Part shown: positions 5,533-51,536 of the stretch, in pieces
Layout: every line of letters starts with the position of its first letter
Numbering within the stretch: position 1 is the stretch's first letter
Made by a program: the position numbers and the translations under genes
The notes under the pieces: generated by a model
What the model was told of the DNA's origin: nothing
Databases searched by the model: none
Seen by the model: the letters and a program-made list of their open reading frames with translations, nothing else
Source: Arcobacteraceae bacterium
GTDB lineage: Bacteria > Campylobacterota > Campylobacteria > Campylobacterales > Arcobacteraceae
DNA: 64,000 nt
Direction: 5' to 3'
NCBI GenBank assembly: GCA_963662945.1
Contig: OY759974.1
Span: 256,001-320,000 of the forward strand

Positions 5533-6046
5533 AGTATTTACTGTAACAAATATCATCATACTTGTAAATATTTTTATGTTTATAGTTCAAAACAGTATCC
5601 ATAATGGTATTTTGTATTTTGGATTGAATATTTACTTTTTTAGAAATGAATTATATTATCAACTACTTTCAACTATGTTTGTTCATGGTGGAGTTGCGCA
5701 TATTTTGATGAATATGTTTGTTTTATTTCAATTTGGAAATATTATAGAAAGAGTTATCGGTATACCGAAATATCTCTTTTTATATTTTGTAGGTGGTGTT
5801 TTAACCTCAATTGGAAGTTTAGCTTATATGTATATTACAGGAGATTGGGCAAACTTAGTTGGTGCAAGTGGTGCTATAAGTGTTCTTCTTGGTTGGTTTG
5901 CGCTTAAAGACACATATCAAAGAAAAGGGATAATAGTATGGATACTTCTAATATCTTTTGCACCACTTTTATTGGGTATGCCTGTTGCTTGGTATGCTCA
6001 CCTCATAGGATTTGCTTTAGGATGGGCTTTAGGCTACATTTTATAA
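5522..6046 (+). CDS. Rhomboid intramembrane serine protease (integration target; 3' end supplied by the element)
   Basis: Motifs 'FVHGGVAHILMNM', catalytic GASG and 'AHLIG'. ATG at 5522. Confidence 0.93.
   Translation: MTNRVFTVTNIIILVNIFMFIVQNSIHNGILYFGLNIYFFRNELYYQLLSTMFVHGGVAHILMNMFVLFQFGNIIERVIGIPKYLFLYFVGGVLTSIGSLAYMYITGDWANLVGASGAISVLLGWFALKDTYQRKGIIVWILLISFAPLLLGMPVAWYAHLIGFALGWALGYIL
5949..5964 (+). repeat. attL core TAATATCTTTTGCACC
   Basis: Exact match to 50444-50459. Confidence 0.92.
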
Positions 6047-6084
6047 GCATTTCAGAAGATCAAAAAAAATCTTAAATAATAGTC

Positions 6085-6247
6085 AAATAGGGTTAATTAG
6101 TGCCTATAAGGTACATATAATAGTACATAGTGTATAGTTCTTTTATGAATTTTATGTACCTATCTTATAAAATATGTACCTTTTGTTTTTAATAAAATTT
6201 CATTTTTAACAAAAAACTATGTACTTTTAGTATTTTTAATATGTACC
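6085..6247 (+). repeat. Putative integrase arm-type sites (GTACAT/ATGTAC); 47-bp block 6085-6131 repeated at 50334-50380
   Basis: aaatagggttaattagtg..tagtacatagt occurs at both element ends, and four inverted ATGTAC lie before the integrase start. Confidence 0.7.
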
Positions 6248-6282
6248 TTTTCAAAATTCAACTTAATTTAAAAGGTTTAAAA

Positions 6283-7509
6283 ATGGCAAAATATGCAGGA
6301 ATAAGATCTGAAGTTATGAAGGATGGATCTGTTGCTATAATGGCTCAATTCAAACATTTAGGTGTTAGATATTCAAAAAAAAATCTAACTTCACTTTGGG
6401 GAATAAGAACTGAAAAAAAAGGTTTTGAAAAATTACAAGAAATAAAAGCTGAATTATCAGATAAAAAAGATCCTTTTGCAAGTTCAGCAAGTTCACTAAA
6501 TTTAATTTGGGAAAAAAAACTTGAGAAAAATAGAGCATCAGGTGAATGGGCTAAATCAACTTGTAAAAATTATTCTTATTTTTATAAAACTCATATAAGA
6601 ACTGCAATTGGTCAAAAGAAAATTGAAAGAATAACATATAATGATATTATGAATCTTTTTGATCATTTTAAAGCTAATCAAGCAAGTTCAAAAAATACTC
6701 TTATTGATATATTAAGACCTATTTTTAATGAAGAACAAATAAAAGGAAATATCACTAAAAATATATTTGATCCTATTAAAAAGTTTGTTGAAATTCCTCA
6801 AAAAGCACCTGTGTCTGATAGAACACATTATGAAGATATTGAAATAATTAGAAGAATTTATAATGCAATACCTGATTATAATCAAGCAAGAGTACATAAT
6901 ATTGAGATGCACCAAAACTTTTTATATATGTTGATTCTAAGTTGTCATAGAGTTGGTGAATTAACTAAATTAGAAAAAAAACATTGTAATTTAGAACATA
7001 GAATAATTGTTGCACCTAAAACTATTACTAAATCAAAAAGAGATTATCACTACCCTATTCCTGAAGAATGTATTTCATATATTGAAAATCATAAAGGTGG
7101 GGTTTTATTTCCAATAGCAAGAGGTGGAACATTAAGTAGAATATTTCAAAGAATACTTTTTCAAGCAGGTATTGATACAATTGAAGGTCATACTTTATCA
7201 AATCACTCTGTTAGAGCTATGATGATGAGTATAATGATTAATGATTTGGATATTAAAGAATCAATAGCTCACAATTGTCTTGAACATAAACCTCAAGATA
7301 TGAAGAAACATTATCATAATATTCCATATAGTGTTAAAGCTAAAACATTTAAGCAATATTGGGATTATATTAAAGAAATACCAATTGAAAATGAAGATAA
7401 TAAAAATACTGATGCAAATCTTGATGATTTAAAAGAATTGATCAGTAATTATAAAGAAGGATTATTGACTAAAGAAGAATTTGAAATAGCTAAAAAAATG
7501 ATATTATAA
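6283..7509 (+). CDS. Tyrosine recombinase/integrase with C-terminal SHOCT-like tail
   Basis: Catalytic residues R (CHRVGE), K, HSVR, LEH and HY. Tail reads 'LKELISNYKEGLLTKEEFEIAKKMIL'. Likely ATG at 6283 after AAGG. Confidence 0.9.
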   Translation: MAKYAGIRSEVMKDGSVAIMAQFKHLGVRYSKKNLTSLWGIRTEKKGFEKLQEIKAELSDKKDPFASSASSLNLIWEKKLEKNRASGEWAKSTCKNYSYFYKTHIRTAIGQKKIERITYNDIMNLFDHFKANQASSKNTLIDILRPIFNEEQIKGNITKNIFDPIKKFVEIPQKAPVSDRTHYEDIEIIRRIYNAIPDYNQARVHNIEMHQNFLYMLILSCHRVGELTKLEKKHCNLEHRIIVAPKTITKSKRDYHYPIPEECISYIENHKGGVLFPIARGGTLSRIFQRILFQAGIDTIEGHTLSNHSVRAMMMSIMINDLDIKESIAHNCLEHKPQDMKKHYHNIPYSVKAKTFKQYWDYIKEIPIENEDNKNTDANLDDLKELISNYKEGLLTKEEFEIAKKMIL

Positions 7510-8152: not shown

Positions 8153-8812
8153 TTAATCCTTACACATTTGATCTTTTATTTTTAAAGAACCAAATTTTAT
8201 AAGAACTTTATCTGCCCCTTCAAAATCATCTTCTAATATATAAGATAGTAAATGAGCAAATTCACCATTATAAAACACAATTTTCTTTAATTTTGAAGAA
8301 TTTATATCTGACATACTTTTTAAAAGATTATAAGCATTTAAACTCTTATTTTCAGATATGTTATATTCTATTACACTTGTAAGAAGATTTGCTCTATCAT
8401 TTTTTGATTTGTTTGGAGTTATGATTACATAAGAACCATTTTGTTTCATTAGCATATAGTCTTTATTTGCTCTTTTTATACTTGCTTCATCAATTATTGT
8501 AGTAATACCTATATATGAATATAATAAGTTGATATTTTGCTCTTTTTCATATGTCTTATAAATATGCTTGGTGTAAGAATCTAATTGCTTACAAATAGAT
8601 TTTCCCTTATAAATATCTAATAAAGAACAATCTTCTGTTTTGTCATAACCTAATAACTCAAATGTTTCTTCTCTCTGTATATCAAAATAAGTGTCTTTCA
8701 TTATTTTTATAACTTTCTGATCAGTTTCTTTTTCACAATTTATTTCATCTGCCATTGCACTTGTTGATAATACACCTATTAGTGCTATTGTTGTTATTGT
8801 TTTTTTTAACAT
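8153..8812 (-). CDS. Secreted protein, element paralog family copy 1
   Basis: Signal peptide MLKKTITTIALIG; motifs 'HIY..Y....INLLY' and 'F..LLSY....F..AD'. Confidence 0.7.
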   Translation of the reverse strand: MLKKTITTIALIGVLSTSAMADEINCEKETDQKVIKIMKDTYFDIQREETFELLGYDKTEDCSLLDIYKGKSICKQLDSYTKHIYKTYEKEQNINLLYSYIGITTIIDEASIKRANKDYMLMKQNGSYVIITPNKSKNDRANLLTSVIEYNISENKSLNAYNLLKSMSDINSSKLKKIVFYNGEFAHLLSYILEDDFEGADKVLIKFGSLKIKDQMCKD

Positions 8813-8971
8813 ATTTTGTTTCCTTTGTATTATAAAATTTAATTTGAGTTGTTTAACTCTATTGGGTTATAGTATTTCATTAATGATAATTATTAAAAAT
8901 GTGAGTTAATTAGAAAAAAGGCAAAAAAAATCCCCACTTAGTAAAAAGTGAGGATTATATGAGTGATTTAG

Positions 8972-9948: not shown

Positions 9949-10353
9949 TTATGATGCTAAAAAATAGGTATCTTCATTATATTCTAATTGATCATTTAGA
10001 TCATTTTGTTCTAATAAATAATCTAAACTAAAAATATTTTCATCTTTATAATTATTTGATTCTAATTCATTTGATTCAAATATTACTGTTGAAATATCAA
10101 CACCTTCAAGATTTACATTTGAGAGATCACAACCTTCTAAAATAGTATTATTTAAAGTTGAACCTTTTAAATTTGCTCCTGATAAATTACAATAAGATAA
10201 ATCTGCACCTGTTAAATTACAATTTGATAAATCACAATTTGAAAGATCACTTCCAATAAATTTTGAACCTGTTAGATTTGTGTTTTTAAATGAAGTACCT
10301 CTGAAATTTACACACATAAATTCTTTTTTATTTGTTTTAATATTAATTGACAT
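9949..10353 (-). CDS. Pentapeptide repeat protein with acidic tail
   Basis: Repeats of (S/C/A)(D/N)L(S/T)x. Confidence 0.9.
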   Translation of the reverse strand: MSINIKTNKKEFMCVNFRGTSFKNTNLTGSKFIGSDLSNCDLSNCNLTGADLSYCNLSGANLKGSTLNNTILEGCDLSNVNLEGVDISTVIFESNELESNNYKDENIFSLDYLLEQNDLNDQLEYNEDTYFLAS

Positions 10354-11917: not shown

Positions 11918-12187
11918 TTATTCTAAATGAGAATATGAATTTAATATTCTAACAATTTCTTCATCATTATTATTATCAGCAATTCTATTTTGAATTTTAT
12001 GAGAAGTATGAACTGGTTTTTTATCATCTTTTTCCCATTTTTTTATTTGTTCTTTAATTTCTGCTCCAAGAAGCATTCCCCCAACAAAATGAACTACTCC
12101 AACAACTGCATATTTAGCTAATTCATTAGCTTGTATATTGGTTGATAATATTAATATTACTAATATTGATGTTGTAATCTTTTTCAT
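11918..12187 (-). CDS. Small secreted/membrane protein
   Basis: Signal peptide followed by a glycine-rich hydrophobic segment. Confidence 0.6.
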   Translation of the reverse strand: MKKITTSILVILILSTNIQANELAKYAVVGVVHFVGGMLLGAEIKEQIKKWEKDDKKPVHTSHKIQNRIADNNNDEEIVRILNSYSHLE

Positions 12188-12401
12188 AAATATCCTTCTT
12201 ATTGATATTATAGTTTATTTTAGTATTTTTTTCAATATTGAACTTAATATTTATTATGATTTTAGTGTTATTTGATTAATTTTATAAGGTTTTTCATATG
12301 AAAAAACAAATAAAGGTGTAATTACTGGTTTTAATATTATTTTGAGTTTTAGAGCATATTTAGTTTTTCAATAATAACTTATATTTTCTATCAATATTAA
12401 T

Positions 12402-12648
12402 TAAAGTTGTTGAAACTTTTCAAGATTTTTAATTATCCTTGTGAAAAAACTTTATAGTAATTGAGTATCTGAATAAAGTTGTTGGGATAAGCCAATCTAT
12501 TCTATTATCCTTGTGAAGAGAGTATTGCCAAATACTTAAATATTATCATAGAGATATGAAATATTTTTCTGATCAAAAAAACAAACCAAATAATCCTCAA
12601 TGGTGGAAAAAATGCTTCATAGCATTTTTGTAACCTTTGGTTTGTTCT
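12402..12648 (+). repeat. Dispersed structured module A1
   Basis: Near-identical to 16410-16658 and 40378-40565; diverged copy at 28065-28250. Confidence 0.92.
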
Positions 12649-12674
12649 TAATAATAAAAGTATAGACTTCAAAA

Positions 12675-13657
12675 TAATAAACTGAAATATTCAACAAATA
12701 AAATTTAATCAAAATTCAATCAGATTTTCTTTTATAAAAAAATTTTACAACTTTTGGAAACTGGAAAATGCAACAAATGAAATTTCTATGCCTTTTATAT
12801 ACTATTTATTGGGTATGTTCAAAATTATTGCCTTCTCTATCTCAACAAAAGGAAAGTAGTTAAAAAAAAGGTGGTAAAAATATCCAACTTAAATATGAAA
12901 AGGTGGTAAAAATGTCCAACTTAAATTTAACTTAAACTTAATTTATTCAATTTTCTTATGTTTAATAAACTGAAATATTCAACAAATAAAATTTAATCAA
13001 AATTCAATCAGATTTTCTTTTATAAAAAAATTTTACAACTTTTGGAAACTGGAAAATGCAACAAATGAAATTTCTATGCCTTTTATATACTATTTATTGG
13101 GTATGTTCAAAATTATTGCCTTCTCTATCTCAACAAAAGGAAAGTAGTTAAAAAAAAGGTGGTAAAAATATCCAACTTAAATATGAAAAGGTGGTAAAAA
13201 TGTCCAACTTAAATTTAACTTAAACTTAATTTATTCAATTTTCTTATGTTTAATAAACTGAAATATTCAACAAATAAAATTTAATCAAAATTCAATCAGA
13301 TTTTCTTTTATAAAAAAATTTTACAACTTTTGGAAACTGGAAAATGCAACAAATGAAATTTCTATGCCTTTTATATACTATTTATTGGGTATGTTCAAAA
13401 TTATTGCCTTCTCTATCTCAACAAAAGGAAAGTAGTTAAAAAAAAGGTGGTAAAAATATCCAACTTAAATATGAAAAGGTGGTAAAAATGTCCAACTTAA
13501 ATTTAACTTAAACTTAATTTATTCAATTTTCTTATGTTTAATAAACTGAAATATTCAACAAATAAAATTTAATCAAAATTCAATCAGATTTTCTTTTATA
13601 AAAAAATTTTACAACTTTTGGAAACTGGAAAATGCAACAAATGAAATTTCTATGCCT
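12675..13657 (+). repeat. Tandem array, 288-bp unit x ~3.4, each unit with two AAAAGGTGGTAAAAATRTCCAACTTAAAT iteron-like boxes
   Basis: Units start at 12675, 12963, 13251 and 13539 and appear identical. Confidence 0.95.
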
Positions 13658-13741
13658 GCTTTCATAAACATATATTCATTGGCTTTTTTTAAAATCATCA
13701 CCTGAACCTTAACAAAAGCTCTCACAAATGATTGGATTTTT

Positions 13742-13829
13742 AAAAATGTGTAACTTTGGGTGAGTCCAAATATCAAAAATGTGTAACTTTGGGTGAGTGC
13801 TAATATTGCCCTAAATATCAAAAATGTGT
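13742..13829 (+). promoter_or_regulatory. Iteron-like direct repeats AAAAATGTGTAACTTTGGGTGAGT (x2 plus partial), putative replication origin
   Basis: Copies at 13742 and 13775 (33-bp spacing) upstream of the Rep gene. Confidence 0.7.
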
Positions 13830-14020
13830 CAAAAAAAGTGAAAGTTCTTGCTGTTTAGTGTAAATACTTAAATTTAACTTAAACTTAAAGAAATTTTAAA
13901 TTTTATTAAAAAAGTGGTAAAAATAATTGAAATTTACCTCCAAATAATATATATTATAAGAAATATACTTATAACAAAGTAGATATTAAAAAAATATAAA
14001 TAAATTTTAAAGGAAAAAAA

Positions 14021-15067
14021 TTGAATAATAAATTTACACATAGTATGAATTGTTTGCTTCCACAAGAACAAAATAGATTTAATAAACCAAATGTATTAAT
14101 TAAGTCACAATTATCACAAGCAATAACTCATAAAGAATCTGAAGTATTTTCAGTATTAGTTAGGATGTTGTTAATAACTGAAAGAAGTAATTTTGATTTA
14201 GTAACTGATTATGATTTAAATTGTGATTATGCAGATATAAATAATTTTATGTCTGATAATCATACATCAAAAGATATTAGAAAAATTCTTGAAAAATTAT
14301 TAAATACAACAATCAGATTTAATTATATACATAATGGTAAATGTAGAATTAGAAATACAAAAATAATTACAGCATATGAAGATAGTAAAGGGAGATATGA
14401 TAAAGCAAGTATCTCATTTGATCATAAACTAATAAAAGTATTAATTGAAAAGGTATATCCATATACAAAATTAAATGAAATTGAGCAATATAAATTATCT
14501 AATATATATTCAACAACTTTTTATGAGTATTTTAAATTAGCTCTTGGTAATAAATTGAGCAATATAAAGTATTTTTCAGAATCAGAATTAAGAAAAAAGT
14601 TTTTTTTAGAAAATAAATACAAAAATATTAAAGAGTTTAATAAGTTTGTAATTAAAAAAGCTTTAACTGAAATAAATAGTCACACATCATTAAATATTGA
14701 ATATAAAGTTGAAAAAGATGAAATATCAAATGAAAGAATATATAAATTTAAAATTGAAGATATTCCTATGACTGAAAATATTTTAAATATTTCAGAATTT
14801 AAAAATCTGATCAAAAATATGTCTAAAAAAAATAGAGAAATTATTTATAAATATAGAAATAATAACTATTATCTTGGTGAACAATTAGACTTTTATGCTA
14901 CAGGAAAAATACTTTGGATTATTGAAAATAGTGATAAAACAACTTCAAAAATTATTGCTACTAAAATTTGGAATAATCTTTATAAAGAATATTTACAAAA
15001 TAGTGAGCAGTTTGCTGAAAAATATTATGATTTATCATATAAAGAATTATTAGAGGATGGAAAATAA
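14021..15067 (+). CDS. Rep_3 (RepB-type) plasmid replication initiator
   Basis: 'KPNVLIKS', 'YTKLN....KLSNIYSTTFYEY' and 'NKYKNIKEFNKFVIKKALTEINSHTSLNI' follow the Rep_3 pattern. Confidence 0.85.
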   Translation: MNNKFTHSMNCLLPQEQNRFNKPNVLIKSQLSQAITHKESEVFSVLVRMLLITERSNFDLVTDYDLNCDYADINNFMSDNHTSKDIRKILEKLLNTTIRFNYIHNGKCRIRNTKIITAYEDSKGRYDKASISFDHKLIKVLIEKVYPYTKLNEIEQYKLSNIYSTTFYEYFKLALGNKLSNIKYFSESELRKKFFLENKYKNIKEFNKFVIKKALTEINSHTSLNIEYKVEKDEISNERIYKFKIEDIPMTENILNISEFKNLIKNMSKKNREIIYKYRNNNYYLGEQLDFYATGKILWIIENSDKTTSKIIATKIWNNLYKEYLQNSEQFAEKYYDLSYKELLEDGK

Positions 15068-15069
15068 TT

Positions 15070-15495
15070 ATGACTTTACATCAATACAAAACAATACTTC
15101 ATAATGAATTTTCTGATCAAATTAATGCAGAAGTTTTTTTTGAATTATTAAGAATACAAGAATCATCTTTTGAATTAAGTTTATTAATTCCATTTTTAGA
15201 GATACCTAATAAATATAATATTTACTCATCATATAAAGATATTCAAGATTGTACATCTTTGAATATGTCATTTGAAAATTTTGAAAAAATAATTATTAAA
15301 TTATTAAATAAAAAATTCAAATTTCAATATATAAGTTCTGATGGTACAGAAATAATAACAAGGAACATTAATTTTGTAACTAAATATGAAAAAGAAATGA
15401 TAAAAGGTGAAGAAATACTAAAAATTTACTTTGATCCAAAATTTCTTGAAATATATATGAATATGATATTTATTCCTTTGAAAAAATCTGAATAA
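15070..15495 (+). CDS. Rep_3 N-terminal winged-helix-like paralog
   Basis: Resembles the first half of the upstream Rep ('EVF..LLR', 'KLLN..F.F.YI', 'I.FD.K'). Confidence 0.5.
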   Translation: MTLHQYKTILHNEFSDQINAEVFFELLRIQESSFELSLLIPFLEIPNKYNIYSSYKDIQDCTSLNMSFENFEKIIIKLLNKKFKFQYISSDGTEIITRNINFVTKYEKEMIKGEEILKIYFDPKFLEIYMNMIFIPLKKSE

Positions 15496-15675
15496 ATTCA
15501 ATTATTAATCCTATTTTAATCCCCCTCACCTTCTCTTTTTGGGAAGGTTTTTTTATGCCTAACAAATTTTCAAATTTCTTCTAAAAACCCCTTTAAAATG
15601 GCTCTGAGAAGTGTTTTTTTATTGATTCTGAATTTTTCTATATATAACAAAGTATAACACTTAAAGGACTATACT

Positions 15676-16305
15676 ATGTTAAAGCTAACAGAAACTAAAA
15701 TCATAAATAATAAAAATCTAACTGGTGAATTTGAAAAATTTCAAAATTCTGAAACATATAAACATACTGAAAGAGTTGCTTATCACTCTCATATCATAGC
15801 AAAAAAATTAGGAATGACTGAAAAAGAATCTCAAAGAATTTTTGATATTGCTCCTTATCATGATTTTGGTAAAATGGTAATTGATGAAAATATTCTTTAT
15901 AAAGAATCTCAATTAACAGATGAAGAATTTAATATCATAAAATCTCATGCAACTCTTGGTTATGAAATTTTAAAAGATAATAATCATGACTTTTTTGATG
16001 AATGTGCTATTGTTGCTCACCAACATCATGAAAAATGGAATGGTACTGGTTATCCTAATAATTTAAAAGGTGAAGATATTCATATCTCTTCAAGAATTGT
16101 TGCTGTTGCAGATGTTCTTGATGCTTTAATCTCTAAAAGAGCTTATAAAAAAGCTTGGTCTCCTAAAGAAATTATTTTACATTTTGAAAAAGAAAAAAAT
16201 GTTTCTTTTGATCCTATTGTTGCTAAAACTGTTATTGAAAACTTCTCTGAATTTAATCACCAAAATCAAAAATTACACCATTTACAAACTTTAACAAATA
16301 TATAA
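15676..16305 (+). CDS. Stand-alone HD-GYP phosphodiesterase
   Basis: Motifs HTERVA, HDFGK, HHEKWNGTGYP and ADVLDAL..R.YK. Confidence 0.93.
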   Translation: MLKLTETKIINNKNLTGEFEKFQNSETYKHTERVAYHSHIIAKKLGMTEKESQRIFDIAPYHDFGKMVIDENILYKESQLTDEEFNIIKSHATLGYEILKDNNHDFFDECAIVAHQHHEKWNGTGYPNNLKGEDIHISSRIVAVADVLDALISKRAYKKAWSPKEIILHFEKEKNVSFDPIVAKTVIENFSEFNHQNQKLHHLQTLTNI

Positions 16306-17773: not shown

Positions 17774-17802
17774 GAAGTTTTACTTCTTAGGAAAGGATAA
17801 AT

Positions 17803-26135: not shown

Positions 26136-26137
26136 AA

Positions 26138-40662: not shown

Positions 40663-41673
40663 ATGAAAAATATTAGTAAATTGATTGAAATAATCAAAAG
40701 AGAAACAGAAAGTAAAGTAAAAACAGATTATATATTTTTAGGGTATTACACTTTATATATGTATAAATTATTATTAAATATGTATAATCCTGAAATCAAA
40801 GAAAAAGATTTTTATAAATATTTTTATAGAACATTAAAACATACAGATGATAAAAATTCATTTATCATTAATAATGGTAAAAATGAAATAATTCTAAAAA
40901 ATAGTTTTAAATTAGGTGGTGCATTAGATGTATTAGCAGGTGTTGATATGATATTAGATCATTTTAAAAAAACATTAACTCAAAAGCAATATGATAAGAT
41001 AAAATATAATTGGGAATCATTAGGATTAATACAATTTAAAAAAGAACTTAAAACAAATAGAAATGGTTTAGAAAAAGTTATTAAAGCATATGATGAGATT
41101 GATCATCTTGGAATTGAAGATTTAATCAATATATATGAAAAATTAAATGTAAGTGATAGAACATATAATGATTTTTTTACTCCACCTGATATTTCTATAT
41201 TTGCTTCAAAATTAATGGTTCAAAAATATATTGACAATAATAAAAACAATAAAAAAGAAGTCAATTTTTGTGATATAGCTTGTGGTTGTGGTAGATTGTT
41301 ATATTATGGAATGATTGAATTAAAAAATAATGGTATTGATAATATAAGAATATTTGGAAATGATATTTATGAACCTGTATGTGTATTTACAAAATCAATA
41401 TTAGAATTAGTGAATTTTGGGAAAGTACATATTTTTCAAAGTGATGCACTAACATCTAAACTTCCACTTCCTAAAATGGATATACTTTTAGGTAATCCAC
41501 CTTTTGGTGGATCTTATGATAAAGATAAAATTTTAAATTTATCAAGATATAAAAAAGAAAATATGGGTATGGATATTCAATTTGAAAATATTGATTTATT
41601 AAGATTAAAAAAACTAACACCATTAAATGATATAGAATATACTGCAATTGAAAAAAATTATAGAGAAATCTAA
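40663..41673 (+). CDS. Orphan N6-adenine DNA methyltransferase-like protein
   Basis: Motifs FFTP, DIACGCG and NPPF; short after motif IV. Confidence 0.8.
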   Translation: MKNISKLIEIIKRETESKVKTDYIFLGYYTLYMYKLLLNMYNPEIKEKDFYKYFYRTLKHTDDKNSFIINNGKNEIILKNSFKLGGALDVLAGVDMILDHFKKTLTQKQYDKIKYNWESLGLIQFKKELKTNRNGLEKVIKAYDEIDHLGIEDLINIYEKLNVSDRTYNDFFTPPDISIFASKLMVQKYIDNNKNNKKEVNFCDIACGCGRLLYYGMIELKNNGIDNIRIFGNDIYEPVCVFTKSILELVNFGKVHIFQSDALTSKLPLPKMDILLGNPPFGGSYDKDKILNLSRYKKENMGMDIQFENIDLLRLKKLTPLNDIEYTAIEKNYREI

Positions 41674-42638: not shown

Positions 42639-45335
42639 ATGAGTGAAGCAAAGACAAGAGCAGATTTAATTGATGTTGAATTAAATAAATGTGGTTGGAA
42701 TGTCAATGATAATTTAAAAGTAATTCAAGAATATGAGATTGAATTAGATGATACTCTACCATCATTTTTTGATAGAACTAAAAGATATGTAGATTATGCA
42801 CTTTTAAACAAAACAGGACAAATTATTGCTATTGTTGAAGCTAAAAGAGAGAGTAAGTCTGTAAGTAGTGCAAAAACACAAGCAGAATACTATGCAAGAA
42901 GAATTAAAAACTATCAAGGTTTTGCTCCATTTATCTATATAACAAATGGATTAGAAATAGAATTTTGGGATAGTGAAAATTATCCTATTAGAAAAGTTCT
43001 ATCTTACCACTCATTAGAAGATTTAGAAACTTATAGAAAAAGAAATGATAATAATATAATTTTATCTCCTGAACTTTTAAACAAAGATATTGCAGGTAGA
43101 GCTTATCAAATTGAAGCTATCACAAGAACAACAGAAAATCTAAATGAAAAAAATAGAGAAATCTTGTGGGTTATGGCAACAGGAACTGGGAAAACAAGGA
43201 CTATCATATCTCTTGTAGATATTCTTTTAAAAACAGGATTTGTAAAAAGAGTTTTATTTTTAGCAGATAGAAGAGAATTAGCAAGACAAGCTATGGATAA
43301 CTTCAAAGAACACCTACCAAACCAATCAAGACAAAGAATAGAAACAGAAACTTTTGAAAAAGACAAAAGATTATATGTATCTACTTATCAAACTATGATG
43401 TCATTACTTAAAAAAGTTGATATAAGTCAGGGGTTTTTTGATCTAATAATTGCAGATGAAAGTCATAGAAGTATTTATAACTATTATGGACAATTATTTT
43501 TAAAATTTGATAGTTTAAAAATAGGTTTAACTGCTACTCCTGTTGATTTTATTGATAGAGATACTTTTAAATTCTTTGGAACTGATAAAGGTAATCCAAC
43601 TTTTGCATATACTTATGAACAAGCTATAAAAGATAAATACCTTTGCCCTTATGAGGTTATGAATATTCAAACAAAGTTCCAAGAAAAAGGTATTAAATTT
43701 GATTTATTATCAAAAGAGGAACAAGAAAAACTAAAAAATAGTGGTTATGTTGAAGATGATATAGACTTTGAGGGAAGTAGTATAGAAAAAATGGTTATCA
43801 ATGATGATACAAATAGAAAAATACTTACTACTTTTATGGAAAATTGTTATAGACACCCTATTTCAAATCTTCCTGCTAAAACTATACTTTTTGCTGTTAG
43901 TAAAAAACATGCTTACAGATTAGAACAACTTTTTAATGAATTATATCCACAATATCACTCAAAAGTAGCAAAAGTAATAGTATCAGAGTTAAATAATACA
44001 GAGGAACTGATAAAAGAGTTTAGAGATGTTGATAGTGGTTTTAATATAGCTATTTCTGTTGATATGTTAGATACAGGTATAGATGTTCCAAGTATTATGA
44101 ATCTTGTATTTGCTAAACCTGTATTTAGTAGGGCTAAATTTTGGCAAATGATAGGAAGAGGTACAAGACTATACAATGAAGTATTTAATAAAGAAAAGTT
44201 TGTAATCTTTGATTTTTGGGGTAATTTTCAATACTTCAATGAAACCCCTGAGGGATTTGAACCAAAAGAACAAATATCTTTAAATAGAAAAATATTTAAT
44301 GAAAATATTCAACTGCTTAAAAGTTTAAAGGATGAAGAGTTTGAATATGTCAAAGAAGAGATAAAATCACAAATTGAAGCACTACCAAAAGATGATTATT
44401 TTATCAAATCAAAGGCTACCCTACTTTCAAATATCAATGAAGATTTTTACAATAATATAAAATCAAATATTCTATCACTTGGAAATATATCTGAATTAGT
44501 TGATAGAATTGAAGTCAAAGAACCACAAGAACTTCAATTTAGAGTTAAAGTTAAAAAACTTCAAAATGTAAAAATAAAAAAAGATACTAAACTTATTGAA
44601 AAGTATATCAATAGTATTTTGATAGATATTGAAAAAGTTAGAGTAAATAAAACCCTATCAATAGTAAAAAAACATATAGAACTACTTAATAAGTGTTCAG
44701 ATGGAAAATATTGGGCTAATATTGATTTTAATACTACAAATGAAATAACAGATATTTTAGCACCACTTATGAAATACAAATCAAAAAATGATATTCAAGT
44801 AGCTCATTTTGATTTAGAAGATAGTATATCTTCTATTACAGATATTGAGATAAACCACCCATCTGTAAATATACAAGAGTATGAAGATAATATTTTAAAA
44901 ACTCTTCAATCTATTATAAATCAATCTCAAACTTTGCAAAAATTGTTTATAGGTGCTCCACTAAATGATGAAGATATAGAAAGTTTAAAAAATGATTTAT
45001 TAGAGCAAGGATTAGATAGTGAAAAACTATGTAAAATCTTTGATTGTAAATCAAATGATATGATTGAGATACTTTCAAACATAATTAATAAAAAAGAGTA
45101 TAAACTACCATTCTTACTTGATAAGTTTATAGAAACACATACACTAAACTCAAATCAAATAGAATTTATCAAAGCAATCAAACATTATGTTTTAGAGAAA
45201 AAAGATATTGAAAGAAAAGATTTAATGGAAAATCCATTTACCAAGTTTCATAAAATGGGAATAATGGGTATGTTTAAAGGTAGTCAAATGAATGAGTTAG
45301 TTGAGATAATAGATAATAAGGATGTAGCTGTATGA
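42639..45335 (+). CDS. hsdR: Type I restriction subunit R
   Basis: VDYAL..IVEAK nuclease motif, MATGTGKT, DESHRS, LTATP and QMIGRGTR. Confidence 0.95.
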   Translation: MSEAKTRADLIDVELNKCGWNVNDNLKVIQEYEIELDDTLPSFFDRTKRYVDYALLNKTGQIIAIVEAKRESKSVSSAKTQAEYYARRIKNYQGFAPFIYITNGLEIEFWDSENYPIRKVLSYHSLEDLETYRKRNDNNIILSPELLNKDIAGRAYQIEAITRTTENLNEKNREILWVMATGTGKTRTIISLVDILLKTGFVKRVLFLADRRELARQAMDNFKEHLPNQSRQRIETETFEKDKRLYVSTYQTMMSLLKKVDISQGFFDLIIADESHRSIYNYYGQLFLKFDSLKIGLTATPVDFIDRDTFKFFGTDKGNPTFAYTYEQAIKDKYLCPYEVMNIQTKFQEKGIKFDLLSKEEQEKLKNSGYVEDDIDFEGSSIEKMVINDDTNRKILTTFMENCYRHPISNLPAKTILFAVSKKHAYRLEQLFNELYPQYHSKVAKVIVSELNNTEELIKEFRDVDSGFNIAISVDMLDTGIDVPSIMNLVFAKPVFSRAKFWQMIGRGTRLYNEVFNKEKFVIFDFWGNFQYFNETPEGFEPKEQISLNRKIFNENIQLLKSLKDEEFEYVKEEIKSQIEALPKDDYFIKSKATLLSNINEDFYNNIKSNILSLGNISELVDRIEVKEPQELQFRVKVKKLQNVKIKKDTKLIEKYINSILIDIEKVRVNKTLSIVKKHIELLNKCSDGKYWANIDFNTTNEITDILAPLMKYKSKNDIQVAHFDLEDSISSITDIEINHPSVNIQEYEDNILKTLQSIINQSQTLQKLFIGAPLNDEDIESLKNDLLEQGLDSEKLCKIFDCKSNDMIEILSNIINKKEYKLPFLLDKFIETHTLNSNQIEFIKAIKHYVLEKKDIERKDLMENPFTKFHKMGIMGMFKGSQMNELVEIIDNKDVAV

Positions 45336-46504
45336 TAAATAATCTTCCAAGTGGTTGGAAAGAAGAAAAAATTGGTAATATAATAAATTTAACAATTGGT
45401 AAAACTCCATCAAGAAAAAAGACTGAATATTTCACTGGTGATAATTTATGGGTATCAATTGCAGATATAAAATCAATCAATTTAACTGATACAAAAGAAA
45501 AAATTACAGAACAAGCAATCAAAGAAAGTAATATCAAAAAAGTTAAAGCAGGAACTCTTATTATGAGTTATAAATTATCAATTGGTAAAATGGCTTTTGC
45601 TTCACAAGATTTATACACAAATGAAGCAATAGCAGCTTTAAATATTGAAATTGAAGATTTAGATAAAAAGTTTTTATACTACTACTTATTAAATGCAGAT
45701 TTAGAAAAGACAACAGATAGAGCAGTAAAAGGTAAAACATTAAATAAAGCAAAAATTGAACAAATTCCTATTCAATTTCCACCACTTCAACAACAAGAAA
45801 AAATAGTAAAAGTTCTTGATACTACTTCAAATCTAATAGAAAAACAAAAAGAGCTTTTGAAAAATTATGATTTATTTTTAAAATCAAAGTTTATAGAGAT
45901 GTTTGGAGATCCAATTAAGAATCCTATGGGGTGGAAAACTAATCAAATAAAAAATGGTGTAAAGAAAGTTAAAAATGACAACCCATTAAAACAACCACAA
46001 AAAACATATATTTACATTGATATAGGTTCTTTAAATAATAAATATATTGAAAATTATAATTATATTTTAGGAGAAGATGCACCAAGTAGAGCAAAACAAA
46101 TAACATTTTTTAATGATATACTTGTATCTACTGTAAGACCAAACCTAAATAATGTGGCAATGGTAAAATCTACATATGAAACTATTTTATCTTCCACAGG
46201 TTTTTGTATTTTAAGAACAAATGAACAAATATTTAATCCATATTATTTATTTGAAGTAGTAAAACATCAAGGTTTTATACAAAGCTTGATAAATGTAGCA
46301 AAAGGTGCTTCATACCCTGCTGTAAGTAATAATGATATATTAGATTTAAAAATAACAGTTCCTCCAATAGAACTTCAAAATAAATTTGCTTCAATAGTTG
46401 AAAAAATAGAAACTATAAAAGAAAAAGAAAATCAAAAACTAAAACAGCTTGAAGATTTACATAATAGTTCAATGCAAAGAGCTTTTAAAGGGGAAATTGA
46501 ATAA
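45332..46504 (+). CDS. hsdS: Type I specificity subunit S
   Basis: Two TRDs with PPLQQQEKIV and PPIELQNKF conserved regions. Confidence 0.95.
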   Translation: MINNLPSGWKEEKIGNIINLTIGKTPSRKKTEYFTGDNLWVSIADIKSINLTDTKEKITEQAIKESNIKKVKAGTLIMSYKLSIGKMAFASQDLYTNEAIAALNIEIEDLDKKFLYYYLLNADLEKTTDRAVKGKTLNKAKIEQIPIQFPPLQQQEKIVKVLDTTSNLIEKQKELLKNYDLFLKSKFIEMFGDPIKNPMGWKTNQIKNGVKKVKNDNPLKQPQKTYIYIDIGSLNNKYIENYNYILGEDAPSRAKQITFFNDILVSTVRPNLNNVAMVKSTYETILSSTGFCILRTNEQIFNPYYLFEVVKHQGFIQSLINVAKGASYPAVSNNDILDLKITVPPIELQNKFASIVEKIETIKEKENQKLKQLEDLHNSSMQRAFKGEIE

Positions 46505-47514
46505 TGGCTATTTTTAGATTTAAAAATGATAATTTTGACAAAATAGAACAAACAAAGTTTTCAACAGAGGGAATACTTGAAACAAAAAATATTCAAAAAG
46601 CTTTAAAGAAACAGATAGATATTATATCCTCAAATCTTTTAGTTATATCAGAAGAGTTTTCAGAATGGGATGATAGTAATAGAAGAATAGATTTACTTGC
46701 TATTGATAAAGAAGCAAATATTGTAGTTATAGAACTAAAAAGAACTGAAACAGGTGATCATATGGAACTACAAGCATTAAGATATGCTTCAATGGTTTCA
46801 ACATTGACATTGAAAAGAGCAGTTGAAATATTTGAAAAGTATTTAAAGTCAATTGATAGTGATTTAAACCCACAAGAAGAGATTTTATCATTTTTGGGTT
46901 GGAGTGAAGAAGAGAGTAAAGATGAGTTTGCTAATGATGTAAAAATTATACTTGTTTCAAGTAATTTCTCAAAAGAACTTACAACTTCTGTAATGTGGTT
47001 AAATGAAAGAAAAATAGATATCAAATGTTTTAGACTTATACCATACAAAATGGATAATGAAGTTTTAATTGATGTTCAACAAATAATCCCTTTACCTGAA
47101 GCAGAAAGTTATCAAATAAAAATAAGAGAACAAAAAGAAGAAAAAAGAGAAGCAAGAACTGGAATAAGAGATTATTCAAGATACTCTTTTAATGGTGAAA
47201 ATGGATTATCAAAAAGAGGTATTGTTTTAACTATTTGGAAACAATATTTAAAAGATAACCAAAATTTAACTATCTCTAAACTTCAAAATGATTTTCCAAG
47301 AGATATAAAAGGTAATTTATTTGTTTTAAAACAACAAGCATTAGAACAACAAGAAAGAGATAGTAATAATCTAACAAGATACTTCCTTGAAAATGAAGCA
47401 GTTGCAATTATTAATAACAGTGAATATGTAATCTCTAATCAATGGGGAAAAGGTAATATAGAAAAGTTTGTTAGTTATGCAAAAAAATTAGGTTATGAAA
47501 TAAATGAGGAATAA
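46504..47514 (+). CDS. NucS-like PD-(D/E)XK nuclease inside the hsd operon
   Basis: 'EEFSEW...RRIDLLAID....VVIELKR' and 'QALRYA'. Confidence 0.75.
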   Translation: MAIFRFKNDNFDKIEQTKFSTEGILETKNIQKALKKQIDIISSNLLVISEEFSEWDDSNRRIDLLAIDKEANIVVIELKRTETGDHMELQALRYASMVSTLTLKRAVEIFEKYLKSIDSDLNPQEEILSFLGWSEEESKDEFANDVKIILVSSNFSKELTTSVMWLNERKIDIKCFRLIPYKMDNEVLIDVQQIIPLPEAESYQIKIREQKEEKREARTGIRDYSRYSFNGENGLSKRGIVLTIWKQYLKDNQNLTISKLQNDFPRDIKGNLFVLKQQALEQQERDSNNLTRYFLENEAVAIINNSEYVISNQWGKGNIEKFVSYAKKLGYEINEE

Positions 47515-47517: not shown

Positions 47518-48990
47518 ATGTTTGTAAGAAGTGAAGTAAAAAGTAAAATAGATAGTATTTGGAATAAATTTTGGAGTGGTGGGATTGCTAATCCACTTGA
47601 TGCTATACAGCAAATAACAGCTTTAATATTTTTGAAGCTTTTAAATGAAAATGATAATAAAAGTATTCTTCAATCTTCATTTACAGGTGAAGAATATAAT
47701 TCTATTTTTGAAAATGATAAAATGGCTAAATGGGATAACTTTAAAGAGCTTGATAGTGTTAGTATGCTTGAAACTATAAGAGATATTGGATTTCCTTTTA
47801 TCAAAAAATACAATGAGGGAAGTGAGTTTAATAAATCATTAAAAGATATGGCTTTTATTATCACTAAACCATCTTTATTAAGTGAAACTGTTGAGGGTAT
47901 TGATCAGATATTTAATATCCTTGAAGAAGATGAAGAGGGATTTATGGATAGTCTTGGGGATATGTATGAATATCTTTTAAGTGAAATTAGTTCCAGTGGT
48001 AAAAATGGACAATTTAGAACACCAAGACATATTATTCAAATGATGACTGAACTAACAAATCCACAAATTGGAGAAAAAGTTTTTGATCCATCTTGTGGTA
48101 CAGCAGGATTTTTAGTAAGTGCTTATACTCATATGTTAAAGCCATATACTGATAAAGATGGAAAATTAGGGGCAAATCTAACAGATCAAAAACTATGGAA
48201 TAAACTATCAAATGAAACTTTCTATGGAAATGATAGTGATATAAGTATGATCAGAATATCTATGATGAATATGATGTTACATGATATAAGTAATCCACAT
48301 ATAAAACAAACAGATACACTTTCAAAAGGTTATAATGAAAAAGATATGTATCAAGTGGTTTTAGCCAATCCACCATTTAAAGGAAGTATTGATAAAGAAG
48401 ACCAAAATGAGAACTTCTCTATCACTTCAACAAAAACAGAACTTTTATTTTTAGACTTGATTGAAAGAGTATTAGATATTGGTGGTAGATGTGCAGTTAT
48501 TATCCCTGATGGTGTTTTATTTGGTAGTTCAAATGCTCATAAAACACTTAGAAAGAATCTATTAGAGAAGAATGAATTAAAAGCTGTTATATCTATGCCA
48601 AGTGGGGTATTTAAGCCTTATGCAGGGGTTTCTACTGCTGTTTTAGTTTTTGTAAAAGGTGGAACTACTGATAAAGTATGGTTCTATGATATGGAAGCTG
48701 ATGGATATAGCTTAGATGATAAAAGAAATAAAATTGAAAAAAATGATATACCTGAAATCATAGAGCAATATAATAAAAAAGATAGTGATAGTTATAAAGA
48801 AACTAAAAAACACTTCTTCATAGATATAAAAGATATAAAAGAAAATGATTATGATTTATCAATAAATAGATATAAAAATATTGAATATGAAGAGATTGAA
48901 TATCTGCCTACAAATGAAATTTTGGGGGAGATTGAAAATCTATCTAATGCTATAAATGATGATTTAAGTGAATTAAAAAATCTCTTATAG
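47518..48990 (+). CDS. hsdM: Type I methyltransferase subunit M
   Basis: Motifs GQFRTPRHI, DPSCGTAGF and NPPF. Confidence 0.96.
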   Translation: MFVRSEVKSKIDSIWNKFWSGGIANPLDAIQQITALIFLKLLNENDNKSILQSSFTGEEYNSIFENDKMAKWDNFKELDSVSMLETIRDIGFPFIKKYNEGSEFNKSLKDMAFIITKPSLLSETVEGIDQIFNILEEDEEGFMDSLGDMYEYLLSEISSSGKNGQFRTPRHIIQMMTELTNPQIGEKVFDPSCGTAGFLVSAYTHMLKPYTDKDGKLGANLTDQKLWNKLSNETFYGNDSDISMIRISMMNMMLHDISNPHIKQTDTLSKGYNEKDMYQVVLANPPFKGSIDKEDQNENFSITSTKTELLFLDLIERVLDIGGRCAVIIPDGVLFGSSNAHKTLRKNLLEKNELKAVISMPSGVFKPYAGVSTAVLVFVKGGTTDKVWFYDMEADGYSLDDKRNKIEKNDIPEIIEQYNKKDSDSYKETKKHFFIDIKDIKENDYDLSINRYKNIEYEEIEYLPTNEILGEIENLSNAINDDLSELKNLL

Positions 48991-49022: not shown

Positions 49023-50294
49023 TTGAATAAAACCAGAGAACAATTATTAACTAAATTATATAGTATTTACATATTCATTATAAAAAAATTATCAAATGAT
49101 ATTATAAATACAATAGTGAGCTGTAATACATTAATTTACAATAAAATATATATTAGAGTATTTGAAATTTACAAAGATAATACTATTGAACAAAACAAAA
49201 AATTTACCAAGTATTTATATGAGTGTGTTTTGGGATTGAATCCATTGATTGATGAAGAGGATAAGGGAGAATTAGATTTATTAATAAAAGAAATAATATC
49301 AAGTGAATCAAAACTAATAGCTAAACATTATATATTAAGGGCATATTTTGATTATTATATATCTACTAATAGTGTTTTTAAAATAATAAGCAAAAAAAAT
49401 ATCAAAACTAATTTTAAAAAAGCTAAAAAATATGATTTAGATATAAAACTTTTAAGGAATAAAGATTACAAAGCTTTCAAAAAAGATATAAAATCAGAAT
49501 TGAAAGATATATCAAATAAGATAAAAATTATAAATAAAGAAAAAATAAAACTTGAAAAAGAAAAGACAATTAATCCTATTGAAATTAAAATATCAAATAT
49601 AATTGCTTTAATTTCAATTTTTTCTGCATTATCCCTAATTGGAGGCATAATTTATAATCAATTACTTTTTTACTTTTTAGGATTAAATGCAACAAACTTT
49701 TTTAATATATCAGATTATATCTCTTCAAGTGTTGATGTTCTATTTATTGTATTTATTTCTATGGCTATAGCAATACCTTTTTATTTTTTGAAAACTATTC
49801 ACCTTTTAGATGAACAAATCTTAGATGATCAACTTGGAACAAATATTCAAATTGAAAATAACAAAAAAGAATCAATTATTAAATGGTTTATGTATATTTT
49901 ATTAATTTTGGTAAATATTGCATTGTATATTAAAGATAAAGAGATTAATTTTGATTTTTTACTTGTCCTTATATATACTTCTATAATCTTTTCTTTACCA
50001 AAATTAGGTTTTATGAAGTATATTAAAAATTCATATCATTTTGCCTTGTCTATATTAATAATACTTAACTTTTTATTTCTAATAATTTCAAAAGCACATA
50101 ATGAAAAAGAAAATATTAAAACTGATAATTACAATAATAAATATAAAATTGTTTTAAAAGAAAAAAATAATAACAAATACTCATTTATTCAATCTAATTC
50201 AAACTATACTTTCTTATTTAATAAAAATGAAAATAAAGTTATAATCATACACAATAATGAGATTGAAAGAATAGAAGTCTTACTTAATGAATAA
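49023..50294 (+). CDS. Hypothetical multi-TM protein
   Basis: 423 aa with about 5 TMs in the C-terminal half; last gene of the element. Confidence 0.6.
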   Translation: MNKTREQLLTKLYSIYIFIIKKLSNDIINTIVSCNTLIYNKIYIRVFEIYKDNTIEQNKKFTKYLYECVLGLNPLIDEEDKGELDLLIKEIISSESKLIAKHYILRAYFDYYISTNSVFKIISKKNIKTNFKKAKKYDLDIKLLRNKDYKAFKKDIKSELKDISNKIKIINKEKIKLEKEKTINPIEIKISNIIALISIFSALSLIGGIIYNQLLFYFLGLNATNFFNISDYISSSVDVLFIVFISMAIAIPFYFLKTIHLLDEQILDDQLGTNIQIENNKKESIIKWFMYILLILVNIALYIKDKEINFDFLLVLIYTSIIFSLPKLGFMKYIKNSYHFALSILIILNFLFLIISKAHNEKENIKTDNYNNKYKIVLKEKNNNKYSFIQSNSNYTFLFNKNENKVIIIHNNEIERIEVLLNE

Positions 50295-50443
50295 GAAAGT
50301 ATAGTTTAGATTTTAATACACTACAGATATTAAAAATAGGGTTAATTAGTGTCTATTAGGTACATAAAATAGTACATAGTAGAGTTTATAAAATCACTAT
50401 AAACCCCTTAAATAATAGGCTTATAGCTATAAGTGGAACATAG

Positions 50444-50541
50444 TAATATCTTTTGCACCCCTACTTTTAGGGATGCCTATAGCTTGGTATTCACACCTTA
50501 TAGGTTTTGCTCTTGGGTGGGTTATGGGATACATTCTTTAA
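50444..50541 (+). pseudogene. attR core plus displaced original 3' end of the rhomboid gene
   Basis: Encodes ISFAPLLLGMPIAWYSHLIGFALGWVMGYIL*; its stop overlaps the stop of the convergent host gene. Confidence 0.92.
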
Positions 50542-51536
50542 GATAATTTTTCAAAAATCTTTTTAGCTTGAATAATTGCTCCCTCTATATAACCACCTTG
50601 TTCAAAAGAAAATTCTGTAGAACTAAATAATACTTTGTCCCCATATTTACTTGTATCGATCCCATAGTTTGGATGAGCTGTCATATTATTAAAATCTTCT
50701 TTTGTAGAAGTATATTTTTCTCTCTTCCAATCAACAAGATGTATAGCTAAAATTTCACTTTCCTCTATATCAAAAACTCTTTGTAATTGTTCTATTAACT
50801 CTTTTTTATAATTATCAGTATCCACTTTAATTCTTACAAATCCAAACAATGCATTTTTGGTACGAGTAGTAGCATCATGTATCTCAGCCAACGGTCCAAT
50901 ATTTGAGAAAACAAATCCACTCAAACCTTTCTCTCTCCAAAATGAAGTTTTAAATTCAATGACACACTTTGCACTATTTCCCATCCAAGTTTGAGTATTT
51001 TTCATTTTCTCTTTTAATTGTATTGGCAGTGGTGGGATAAAATTTAAATTTTGGGCAATTCTTGGAGGAAGTGTGGAGATAGCATAGTTGCTTGTATACT
51101 CTTTAGTCTTTGTTTTTATTGTTATATTTTCTTGCTTTACTATGGATACAACTTCACTATTTAAAACTATATTGACATTTTGTAATTGATTGTGTAATTT
51201 ATCTATAAGCTTTGTAAGTGTCCCATCCATTCTTGCTGATGGGATATTTTGTTGTGGCATAAATTTTTCAACACTATTTTGTGTATCATACAAAGCATAG
51301 CCATTTTCATATTGTAAAAAGAGTTGTAAATCAAATTTTTCAATAAGTTCTAAAATATTTTTGTGATGTTGCCATACCCAAGATGGTCCCATATCATGAC
51401 CATCTATACTATATATTCTTCCACCTATTCTATCTCTAGCTTCTAAAATAGTTATATCATATTTTTTTTGGAGTAAATAAGCTAAATATAACCCACTAAC
51501 TCCAGCACCGATAATAACTATTTTTTCTTTTTTCAA
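50538..51536 (-). CDS. Flavin monoamine oxidase family protein
   Basis: GAGVSG, LEARDRIGGR and GYIEGA. Confidence 0.9.
   Translation of the reverse strand: MKKEKIVIIGAGVSGLYLAYLLQKKYDITILEARDRIGGRIYSIDGHDMGPSWVWQHHKNILELIEKFDLQLFLQYENGYALYDTQNSVEKFMPQQNIPSARMDGTLTKLIDKLHNQLQNVNIVLNSEVVSIVKQENITIKTKTKEYTSNYAISTLPPRIAQNLNFIPPLPIQLKEKMKNTQTWMGNSAKCVIEFKTSFWREKGLSGFVFSNIGPLAEIHDATTRTKNALFGFVRIKVDTDNYKKELIEQLQRVFDIEESEILAIHLVDWKREKYTSTKEDFNNMTAHPNYGIDTSKYGDKVLFSSTEFSFEQGGYIEGAIIQAKKIFEKLS

Follow-up and report, generated by a model that had tools for sequence, protein, structure and literature searches.

The stretch of DNA analysed in this study (the window) comprises 64,000 nucleotides of an Arcobacteraceae bacterium (assembly GCA_963662945.1, contig OY759974.1, positions 256,001 to 320,000, numbered here from 1) and harbours an integrated, plasmid-like mobilizable island of 44.5 kb (5949-50459) in which the dinucleotide CG does not occur. 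A direct count located 127 CG dinucleotides in the window, with a gap of 44,756 bp between the consecutive CGs at 5901 and 50657; the intervening tract (5903-50656) thus contains none as opposed to the 617 expected from its base composition, while GC is present 622 times against 617 expected. The flanks contain CG regularly, with 39 occurrences on the left (1-5902; observed/expected ratio (o/e) 0.32) and 88 on the right (50657-64000; o/e 0.33). The initial annotation of this region had proposed, by eye, a CG-free tract with these limits, CG-bearing flanks and a compositional expectation of hundreds, all of which the count bears out. It had also equated the CG-free zone with an element defined by attachment (att) sites, and this too is correct: the element is bounded by two copies of a 16-bp direct repeat, TAATATCTTTTGCACC (5949-5964 and 50444-50459), beyond which the tract extends by 46 bp (left) and 197 bp (right), corresponding to ordinary CG gaps of the host.

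The features recognised at the locus are as follows (coordinates, strand and description):

5471-6046, plus strand: rhomboid protease gene (PF01694, E 4e-22)
5903-50656, no strand: CG-free tract (no CG, against 617 expected from composition or 209 at the host o/e)
5949-5964, plus strand: attL copy of the 16-bp direct repeat, inside the rhomboid gene
6241-7509, plus strand: tyrosine recombinase/integrase-like protein of 422 amino acids (aa) (PF00589 at 25 bits, below the cut-off of 27.1; SAM-like N-terminal domain)
9949-10353, minus strand: pentapeptide-repeat protein (profile match)
12675-13657, no strand: perfect 288-bp tandem repeats (approximately 3.4 copies, 100% identical), just upstream of the Rep gene
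14021-15067, plus strand: Rep3-type plasmid replication initiator (PF21205, E 1.5e-10)
15676-16305, plus strand: HD-domain protein (Pfam match)
16879-18705, plus strand: genes upstream of the relaxase without a Pfam family, syntenic with the metagenomic contig L010
18921-22970, plus strand: MobF/TrwC relaxase-helicase of 1349 aa (PF08751, E 1.4e-47)
27006-27518, minus strand: ArdA anti-restriction protein (PF07275, E 1.1e-14)
29585-29992, minus strand: protein with an ArdC-like N-terminal domain (PF08401, E 1.1e-6)
32224-34122, minus strand: type IV coupling protein of the TrwB/TraD type (PF10412, E 8.6e-68)
35525-36235, minus strand: MjaI-like restriction endonuclease, of a family annotated as specific for CTAG; no methylase gene adjoins it
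39619-40287, plus strand: DUF285 repeat protein (72-bp repeats)
40663-41673, plus strand: solitary N6-methyltransferase-like protein (profile matches)
42639-45335, plus strand: type I restriction subunit HsdR (87% aa identity in the genomes G154, G011 and G095, introduced below)
45332-46504, plus strand: type I specificity subunit HsdS (profile match)
46504-47514, plus strand: PDC-S11/DUF91 gene (NucS-like nuclease fold) inside the type I operon (E 2e-119)
47518-48990, plus strand: type I methylase HsdM (90-91% aa identity in three other genera)
50444-50459, plus strand: attR copy of the 16-bp direct repeat (repeat match)

The att repeats lie in the 3' end of the rhomboid gene, the open reading frame (ORF) of which is completed by an element-borne tail (the last approximately 27 codons, 5965-6046), while the displaced original tail is located at about 50460-50540. 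Homologues of the integrase with 50-52% identity adjoin islands in other genera, and the 288-bp tandem repeats constitute a candidate iteron or origin array, if an unusually long one for iterons. The type I genes are ordered hsdR-hsdS-PDC-S11(DUF91)-hsdM. A Pfam scan of the 37 element ORFs of at least 100 aa, to which PADLOC and NCBIfam scans added only PDC-S11, did not detect VirB4 or any other mating-pore family, where a very divergent apparatus may be present among the unannotated ORFs at 23-39 kb; VirB4 (PF03135) is without a match in the whole host genome. Since no mating-pore gene was found, the island is assigned to the integrative mobilizable class rather than to the self-transmissible integrative and conjugative elements. 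Its putative tyrosine integrase, direct-repeat att sites in a gene 3' end with a replacement tail, relaxase, coupling protein, lack of mating-pore genes and defence cargo are those of integrative mobilizable elements and integrated plasmids, from which it differs in composition and not in architecture. In the flanking DNA, a Lon protease falls into a cluster of at least 90% identity with a protein attributed to an Arcobacteraceae bacterium.

The host genome, a single contig of 2,497,315 bp, is itself poor in CG, as the initial annotation had cautioned that it might be, yet it is nowhere near CG-null. Its genome-wide o/e is 0.34, the distance from CG to CG has a median of 88 bp, and the longest CG gap outside the tract measures 1,744 bp. 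In 10-kb windows of the genome the ratio is 0.34 +/- 0.09, with a minimum of 0.19 among windows that do not overlap the element, compared to 0 in the element and 0.32-0.33 in its flanks. The tract also differs in G+C content (23.5% versus 28.9% for the host genome). An expectation derived from the host o/e of each NCGN context rather than from composition predicts 209 CGs for the element (P about e^-209). None of the ten NCGN context classes is represented, eight of them being individually absent at P < 1e-4, and the non-palindromic ACGA/TCGT class accounts for 77.5 of the expected occurrences.

The absence of CG extends to every position at which it could arise in coding DNA and beyond. All 280 arginine codons of the element are AGA or AGG, with no CGN codon, and none of TCG, CCG, ACG and GCG is used. 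Furthermore, codon junctions of the type C|G, which depend on two neighbouring codons, number 0 as opposed to 106 expected from the element's own use of C at position 3 and G at position 1, and 500 synonymous shuffles that retained both the proteins and the element codon usage yielded 90 +/- 8 CGs and never fewer than 61. Likewise, no CG is present in the 11,358 bp that lie outside the 37 ORFs (137 expected). In host genes, CGN codons make up 21.6% of arginine codons, C|G junctions have an o/e of 0.45, and NCG codons represent 2-4% of their families compared to 4-10% for other G-ending codons. Near-neutral sites of the host are thus depleted two- to three-fold, indicating that its mutational and selective regime leads to partial loss and not to zero. 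Taken on the sequence evidence, the loss in the element is shown to be an active purge of the CG dinucleotide and not a consequence of codon usage or base composition. The proposal of purging in the initial annotation is hence upheld by the codon junctions, by the emptiness of all NCGN contexts and by the persistence through divergence described below.

It was considered whether the tract could stem from systematic miscalling of bases at methylated CG, from misassembly or from deliberate engineering, given that CpG-free plasmids have been constructed. Base-calling artefacts are ruled out because the long ORFs are intact without CGN codons, conserved arginine positions being coded by AGA. Additionally, positions 12000-31999 of the window display no difference from the listed pieces of assembled contigs from two public runs, X2 and X5, which possibly derive from the source organism itself, and short matching pieces from run X1 of a separate study, in which a small share of the element's words is present, are also identical. 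The gene content and att sites are natural and the trait recurs elsewhere, namely in the metagenomic contig L010 and three further genomes, so that an artefactual or synthetic origin is practically negligible.

The three genomes (G154, found through its integrase, and G011 and G095, found through HsdM) belong to three other Arcobacteraceae genera, and with them the trait was confirmed in homologous elements, as the initial annotation had recommended. G154 carries an 18.5-kb island at the same rhomboid site, with an integrase that is 52% identical and type I operon proteins that are 87-93% identical to those of the window. This island contains 9 CGs against 264 expected (flank o/e about 0.17), while those of G011 and G095 contain 13 against 297 (flank o/e about 0.27) and 10 against 181 (flank o/e about 0.2-0.37), respectively. 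The islands of G154 and G011 both encode a Rep3 initiator, together with a relaxase of the MobA type and an accessory protein resembling NikA/MobC, and are mobilizable integrated plasmids too; a search with the G154 relaxase retrieved only that of G011 and one distant match. HsdM is 90-91% identical across the four genera as opposed to 52-73% for flanking host proteins, and this identity, being far above that of the flanking housekeeping genes, indicates that the islands crossed genera recently. Chromosomal CG content itself varies approximately two-fold in the family, the o/e being about 0.17 in the flanks of G154 and G084 (regions G154:C32 60-140 kb and G084:C12 10-60 kb), 0.34 in the host of the window and about 0.4 in G026.

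The purge has been retained through considerable divergence. The window and the metagenomic contig L010 carry relaxase genes that are 59% identical in amino acids and 71% in nucleotides; neither gene contains a CG despite 1,175 differences over about 4,000 aligned nucleotides, although a CG would result from 7.8% of the single substitutions possible in the element and from 11% of transitions. Similarly, the type I operons of the window and of G154, G011 and G095 are 85-87% identical in nucleotides (655-710 mismatches), for which approximately 51-55 CG-creating changes would be expected per pair; the window copy contains none and the matched stretches of the others contain one to three. Since the absence of CG was kept through 13-29% nucleotide divergence, selection is considered to be ongoing, and selection against CG acting in cis on the island lineage is thereby demonstrated as far as comparison of sequences can do so. 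A homologous type I operon is present in G484, a genome of another family in the same order, where HsdM is 81% identical and the CG o/e is 0.4-0.7, similar to its surroundings. The shared type I genes therefore do not need CG-free DNA, and the purge was acquired or lost within about 10-20% protein divergence of the operon (window lineage versus G484).

Two candidates for the cause of the purge within the island were rejected, the type I operon itself on account of the normal CG content of the G484 homologue, and the PDC-S11/DUF91 gene as a member of a very common family (7,711 matches among 8,000 scored); a tblastx comparison detected no match to the latter gene in the islands of G011 and G095.

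No close relative of the relaxase was found in plasmid records (tblastn; best 28% identity), in a set of 185,579 species represented by one genome apiece (best 36%) or in the 184 Arcobacteraceae genomes (best 33%), and the nearest relatives, at 46-60% identity, are metagenomic. Contig L010, which is syntenic with 16879-22970 of the window, contains 3 CGs (150 expected), no CTAG (20 expected) and 3 CATG (20 expected), while the metagenomic loci L011, L012, L015 and L022 (51-62% identity) have a CG o/e of 0.31-0.58. In a tree of the relaxase N-terminal domain, in which the L022 row was disregarded, the window is sister to a clade that includes both the purged L010 and the non-purged L015, implying that the trait was gained or lost within this clade. 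For the coupling protein no close relative was found in Arcobacteraceae genomes, neither it nor the integrase had a match among viral contigs, and the Rep proteins of the window and of G154 had none in plasmid records. The 573-aa and 423-aa unknown proteins of the element had no usable match in a protein atlas search. The purge marks one mosaic island lineage with recent genus crossing.

These comparisons also bear on the possibility that the islands originate from a lineage with a CG-null genome and have not yet drifted to the composition of their new hosts. The G+C content (23.5%) and GATC usage of the element do differ from those of its host, and close relatives of its relaxase are known only from metagenomes. 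However, the family loci sampled (L002-L009 and L095-L150) include no CG-null chromosomal stretch besides the islands, their o/e being 0.07-0.83, where 0.07 is the edge of the G154 island, and the island has a rhomboid tail of the family type and occupies the same site in two genera, which indicates that it has cycled within the family. Copies that are 13-15% diverged remain without CG. Moreover, GATC is purged in the islands of G154, G011 and G095 (0-3 compared to 25-43 expected) and rare in their hosts, whereas the window element has kept it (149 compared to 90 expected); GATC usage tracks the host while CG is purged in all four islands. A donor signature is consequently regarded as very unlikely.

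CG is not the only word that is avoided in the element. Among CG-less tetranucleotides, CTAG and GGCC alone are fully erased, with 90 and 8 occurrences expected, respectively (o/e 0 in the element as opposed to 0.66 and 0.29 in the host), CATG is reduced to 11 (90 expected; o/e 0.12 versus 0.60 in the host) and GTAC to 31 (90 expected). Of the 41 CG-less 6-bp palindromes, 21 are absent, including ATGCAT (17 expected), CTTAAG (14) and GTTAAC (8.5), while GAATTC and GATATC occur once each (19 and 11 expected). TGCA and AGCT, like GATC, are at or above expectation, and no CG-less trinucleotide is avoided. Short palindromes are thus rarer than expected and rarer than in the host, and this word profile is characteristic of restriction-target avoidance.

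The MjaI-like endonuclease, the sole RE_MjaI match in the genome, is situated in an element with no CTAG, while the host chromosome retains this word (o/e 0.66); as a partner of the enzyme, the solitary methylase-like gene (40663-41673) is the only candidate nearby. Hardly any GATC occurs in the G154 and G011 regions. Additionally, TGATCA is enriched three-fold in the element, with 69 occurrences (23 expected) spread evenly over 5949-50459 (e.g. at 6660, 7439 and 49826), and possibly serves the element as a functional motif or as a target of methylation. In the host, both GATC (o/e 0.41) and TGATCA (0.51) are avoided, and L010 contains no TGATCA (4.9 expected).

The co-purged words are of relevance to the proposal that CG is selected against for reasons other than defence, such as a CG-reading ribonuclease acting on transcripts, silencing, or the mechanics of DNA during replication or transfer. 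CG is self-complementary, so that selection at the RNA level on densely transcribed DNA would look alike, and the restriction of the purge to one island lineage suits a lineage-specific cause. Nevertheless, the 11.4 kb outside the ORFs are equally CG-free, the words lost together with CG are DNA palindromes typical of restriction sites, the G484 type I operon functions with a normal CG content (o/e 0.4-0.7), and neither a candidate ribonuclease nor a silencer was identified. Selection of this kind is therefore deemed unlikely.

The initial annotation had further suggested long residence in a CpG-methylating host. CG would there be lost by methylation followed by deamination; a related mutational scenario invokes a cytosine deaminase that attacks CG while the DNA is transferred in single-stranded form. 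In accordance with these, the element is enriched in TG (o/e 1.31) and TCA/TGA (1.46 versus 1.06 in the host), CG is scarce throughout the host family whatever the context, and TG exceeds CA on the plus strand within 5949-50459 whatever the gene orientation, a strand asymmetry that could reflect a strand-specific process. Counted on the coding strand, the plus-strand genes of the element contain 1240 TG and 1028 CA and its minus-strand genes 742 TG and 806 CA, while flank genes of both orientations have more TG than CA. Conversely, no match to the C5-methyltransferase family (PF00145) was detected in the host genome, and C5-methyltransferases are absent from all four island-bearing genomes (the host of the window, G154, G011 and G095). 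For 209-617 expected CGs to be reduced to 0, their destruction would have to outpace their creation by a factor above several hundred; host sites close to neutrality are depleted by two- to three-fold only (junction o/e 0.45), and arginine codons are AGA and not the TGA- or CAA-type products of deamination. The TG excess lies on the relaxase-coding strand, whereas by analogy with known MobF plasmids the opposite strand would be the one transferred. Residence in a methylating host is accordingly not supported, and a mutational origin as a whole is held to be quite improbable.

Artefact, donor signature, non-defence selection and hypermutation are each considered less likely than evasion of host defence. 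In our opinion the purge is, on balance, probably the outcome of defence-target avoidance taken down to the level of the dinucleotide and maintained by continuing purifying selection in cis on a broad-host-range mobilizable island lineage. According to this model, the islands would move between Arcobacteraceae genera, and each entry would expose unprotected or wrongly methylated island DNA to the restriction systems of the recipient; owing to this exposure, copies with fewer targets are proposed to transfer better, and the lineage would have been selected against every CG as well as against CTAG, GGCC, CATG and numerous 6-bp palindromes. A role of host defence as the selecting agent is suggested by the purged restriction palindromes together with the anti-restriction genes of the island (ArdA and the ArdC-like N-terminal domain), by the host-tracking profile and by the published link to host range. 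Restriction systems are, furthermore, dense in the family, with C5-methylases in 104 of 184 genomes (more than 200 matches). Avoidance of restriction sites in phages and plasmids was reportedly also documented by Rusinov et al. in 2018 (PMC6286503). Such avoidance resembles that of the island in that short palindromes are purged beyond the level of the host, in that it is stronger in elements of broad host range, and in that it is combined with anti-restriction genes; according to Shaw, Rocha and MacLean (2023, PMC10359461), restriction-modification targets are avoided more strongly by plasmids that are small and have a broad host range. Known cases, however, concern 4-6-bp sites that match identified enzymes, whereas the island has lost a 2-bp word in all 16 contexts over 44.5 kb and may thus be viewed as target avoidance taken to the dinucleotide.

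We infer that recognition of CG operates at, or close to, the level of the dinucleotide itself, and no such reader was identified in the searches. The family C5-methylases provide a partial fit: among 28 enzymes drawn from the 30 best-scoring matches, the commonest types are full-length relatives of M.HhaI (7e-74) and M.HaeIII (1.6e-124), in keeping with the purge of GCGC and GGCC, these specificities being assigned from similarity alone. When nine family types were compared to solved structures, the best relative was HhaI or HaeIII in eight, the remaining type being without a match at E <= 1e-30; the nine types do not include at least three further ones (L184, L185 and L189) or most of the more than 200 matches. 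The initial annotation had recommended a correlation with host C5-methylase content, and here all four island hosts are without the enzyme as are 80 of the 184 family genomes, which is suggestive, though the four are non-independent and were grouped after the islands had been seen. With respect to methyl-dependent (type IV) systems, McrBC is absent from all four hosts and Mrr-type nuclease domains occur in two, so that there is no consistent candidate.

Several observations weigh against the defence interpretation. No restriction enzyme is known to read CG alone, and the loss of ACGA/TCGT and other non-palindromic contexts lies beyond what palindromic 4-6-bp sites can account for. The sum of specific sites also looks insufficient, because only CTAG and GGCC are fully purged among CG-less tetranucleotides, and the combined pressure of ordinary sites seems too weak to have cleared every context. 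Neither the host nor the nine family types tested yielded a CpG-wide methylase, M.MpeI never being the best structural relative of these, and the host has few methylase genes (no C5 enzyme, one broken N4/N6-methylase and otherwise type I). The purge is, in addition, far from general among mobile elements of the family, since other MobF loci have a CG o/e of 0.33-0.82 and coupling-protein loci one of 0.28-0.83 (comparison loci of only 1.6-4.5 kb), and the larger regions around integrase homologues are not purged in G026, G141, G174 and G107 and only partly in G084 (0.03-0.19). As most of these loci are not purged, no universal family-wide CG barrier is evident. Finally, a survey of more than 15,000 genomes states that bacteria have no known defence with a preference for CpG and that the reason for which phages mimic host CpG content is unknown (PMC11282364). 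Among the 22 integrase-homologue loci, likewise 1.6-4.5 kb long, the o/e ranges from 0.07 (the edge of the G154 island) to 0.60, with several low values of 0.12-0.16. The broken N4/N6-methylase gene of the host, its only PF01555 match (contig 1145692-1146885, outside the window), is interrupted by two TAA stops.

The escape from CG-containing restriction sites proposed in the initial annotation is therefore retained in part: the purging of CTAG, GGCC, CATG and 6-bp palindromes and the presence of ArdA and the ArdC-like protein agree with escape from restriction, while CG-containing sites leave A/T-flanked non-palindromic contexts unexplained. The alternative agent that it named, m5C-directed nucleases, would need a CpG-wide methylase, which was not found. 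A direct CG reader lacks precedent, and the route through a CpG methylase and methyl-dependent nucleases lacks its methylase. It is conceivable, if rather doubtful, that an Arcobacteraceae defence, or a circuit of methylation and methyl-dependent restriction, reads bare CG in incoming DNA; were this so, it is no more than tentatively proposed that the chromosomes would be partly depleted in all 16 contexts (o/e 0.17-0.34) and the widest-hopping islands driven to zero.

The island contains further structures. Dispersed intergenic repeats of approximately 215 bp (73-95% identical) are located at 12452-12666, 16461-16675, 28059-28273 and 40372-40586, and additional repeated modules fall into the families D8, D10, D11, D15-D17 and D20; the X2 and X5 short-read contigs break or join at the internal repeats of the element. 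Eight 72-bp repeats (24-aa units; 39578-40354) build the gene of the DUF285 protein, a family first described in Mycoplasma. Five minus-strand genes share a near-identical 5' end and upstream region (8743-8835, 12121-12213, 25236-25328, 26066-26158 and 26362-26454), and their signal-peptide-like N-terminus suggests paralogous secreted proteins or lipoproteins.

Two known systems, in addition to restriction-site avoidance, resemble the island in that CG itself is concerned. In Mycoplasma penetrans, CG rather than a longer site is depleted, the depletion being genome-wide and partial, linked to the CpG-specific methylase M.MpeI and ascribed to methylation and deamination (as cited in PMC11282364), whereas that of the island is total, confined to mobile DNA and found in a host without a C5-methylase; partial genome-wide depletion at mutational equilibrium is not what was observed, the island being at 0 and the chromosome at 0.34. 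Vertebrate viruses suppress CpG and so evade ZAP or TLR9, again with a CG-poor host and a CG-poorer parasite in which CG marks foreign nucleic acid; ZAP and TLR9 are, however, vertebrate proteins, the suppression is partial and, according to the same survey (PMC11282364), a bacterial counterpart is not known. The literature searched, outside supplements and most subscription journals, yielded no description of a bacterial mobile element that is naturally CpG-free; in one search the top-ranked papers listed all dealt with eukaryotes or vectors.

Avoidance is known for words of 4-6 bp, and the full loss of a dinucleotide over 44.5 kb, kept through deep divergence and recurring in islands of four genera, lies far beyond this. 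The CG-free type I operons of the window, G154, G011 and G095 and the CG-bearing operon of G484 constitute a natural experiment. If no CG reader exists, the island still sets an upper bound on the extent to which mobile DNA may tune its sequence. Complete loss of CG implies that something reads CG itself, and a reader of bare CG in the Arcobacteraceae, if its existence were true, would be a bacterial counterpart of the CpG-based sensing of non-self in vertebrates.

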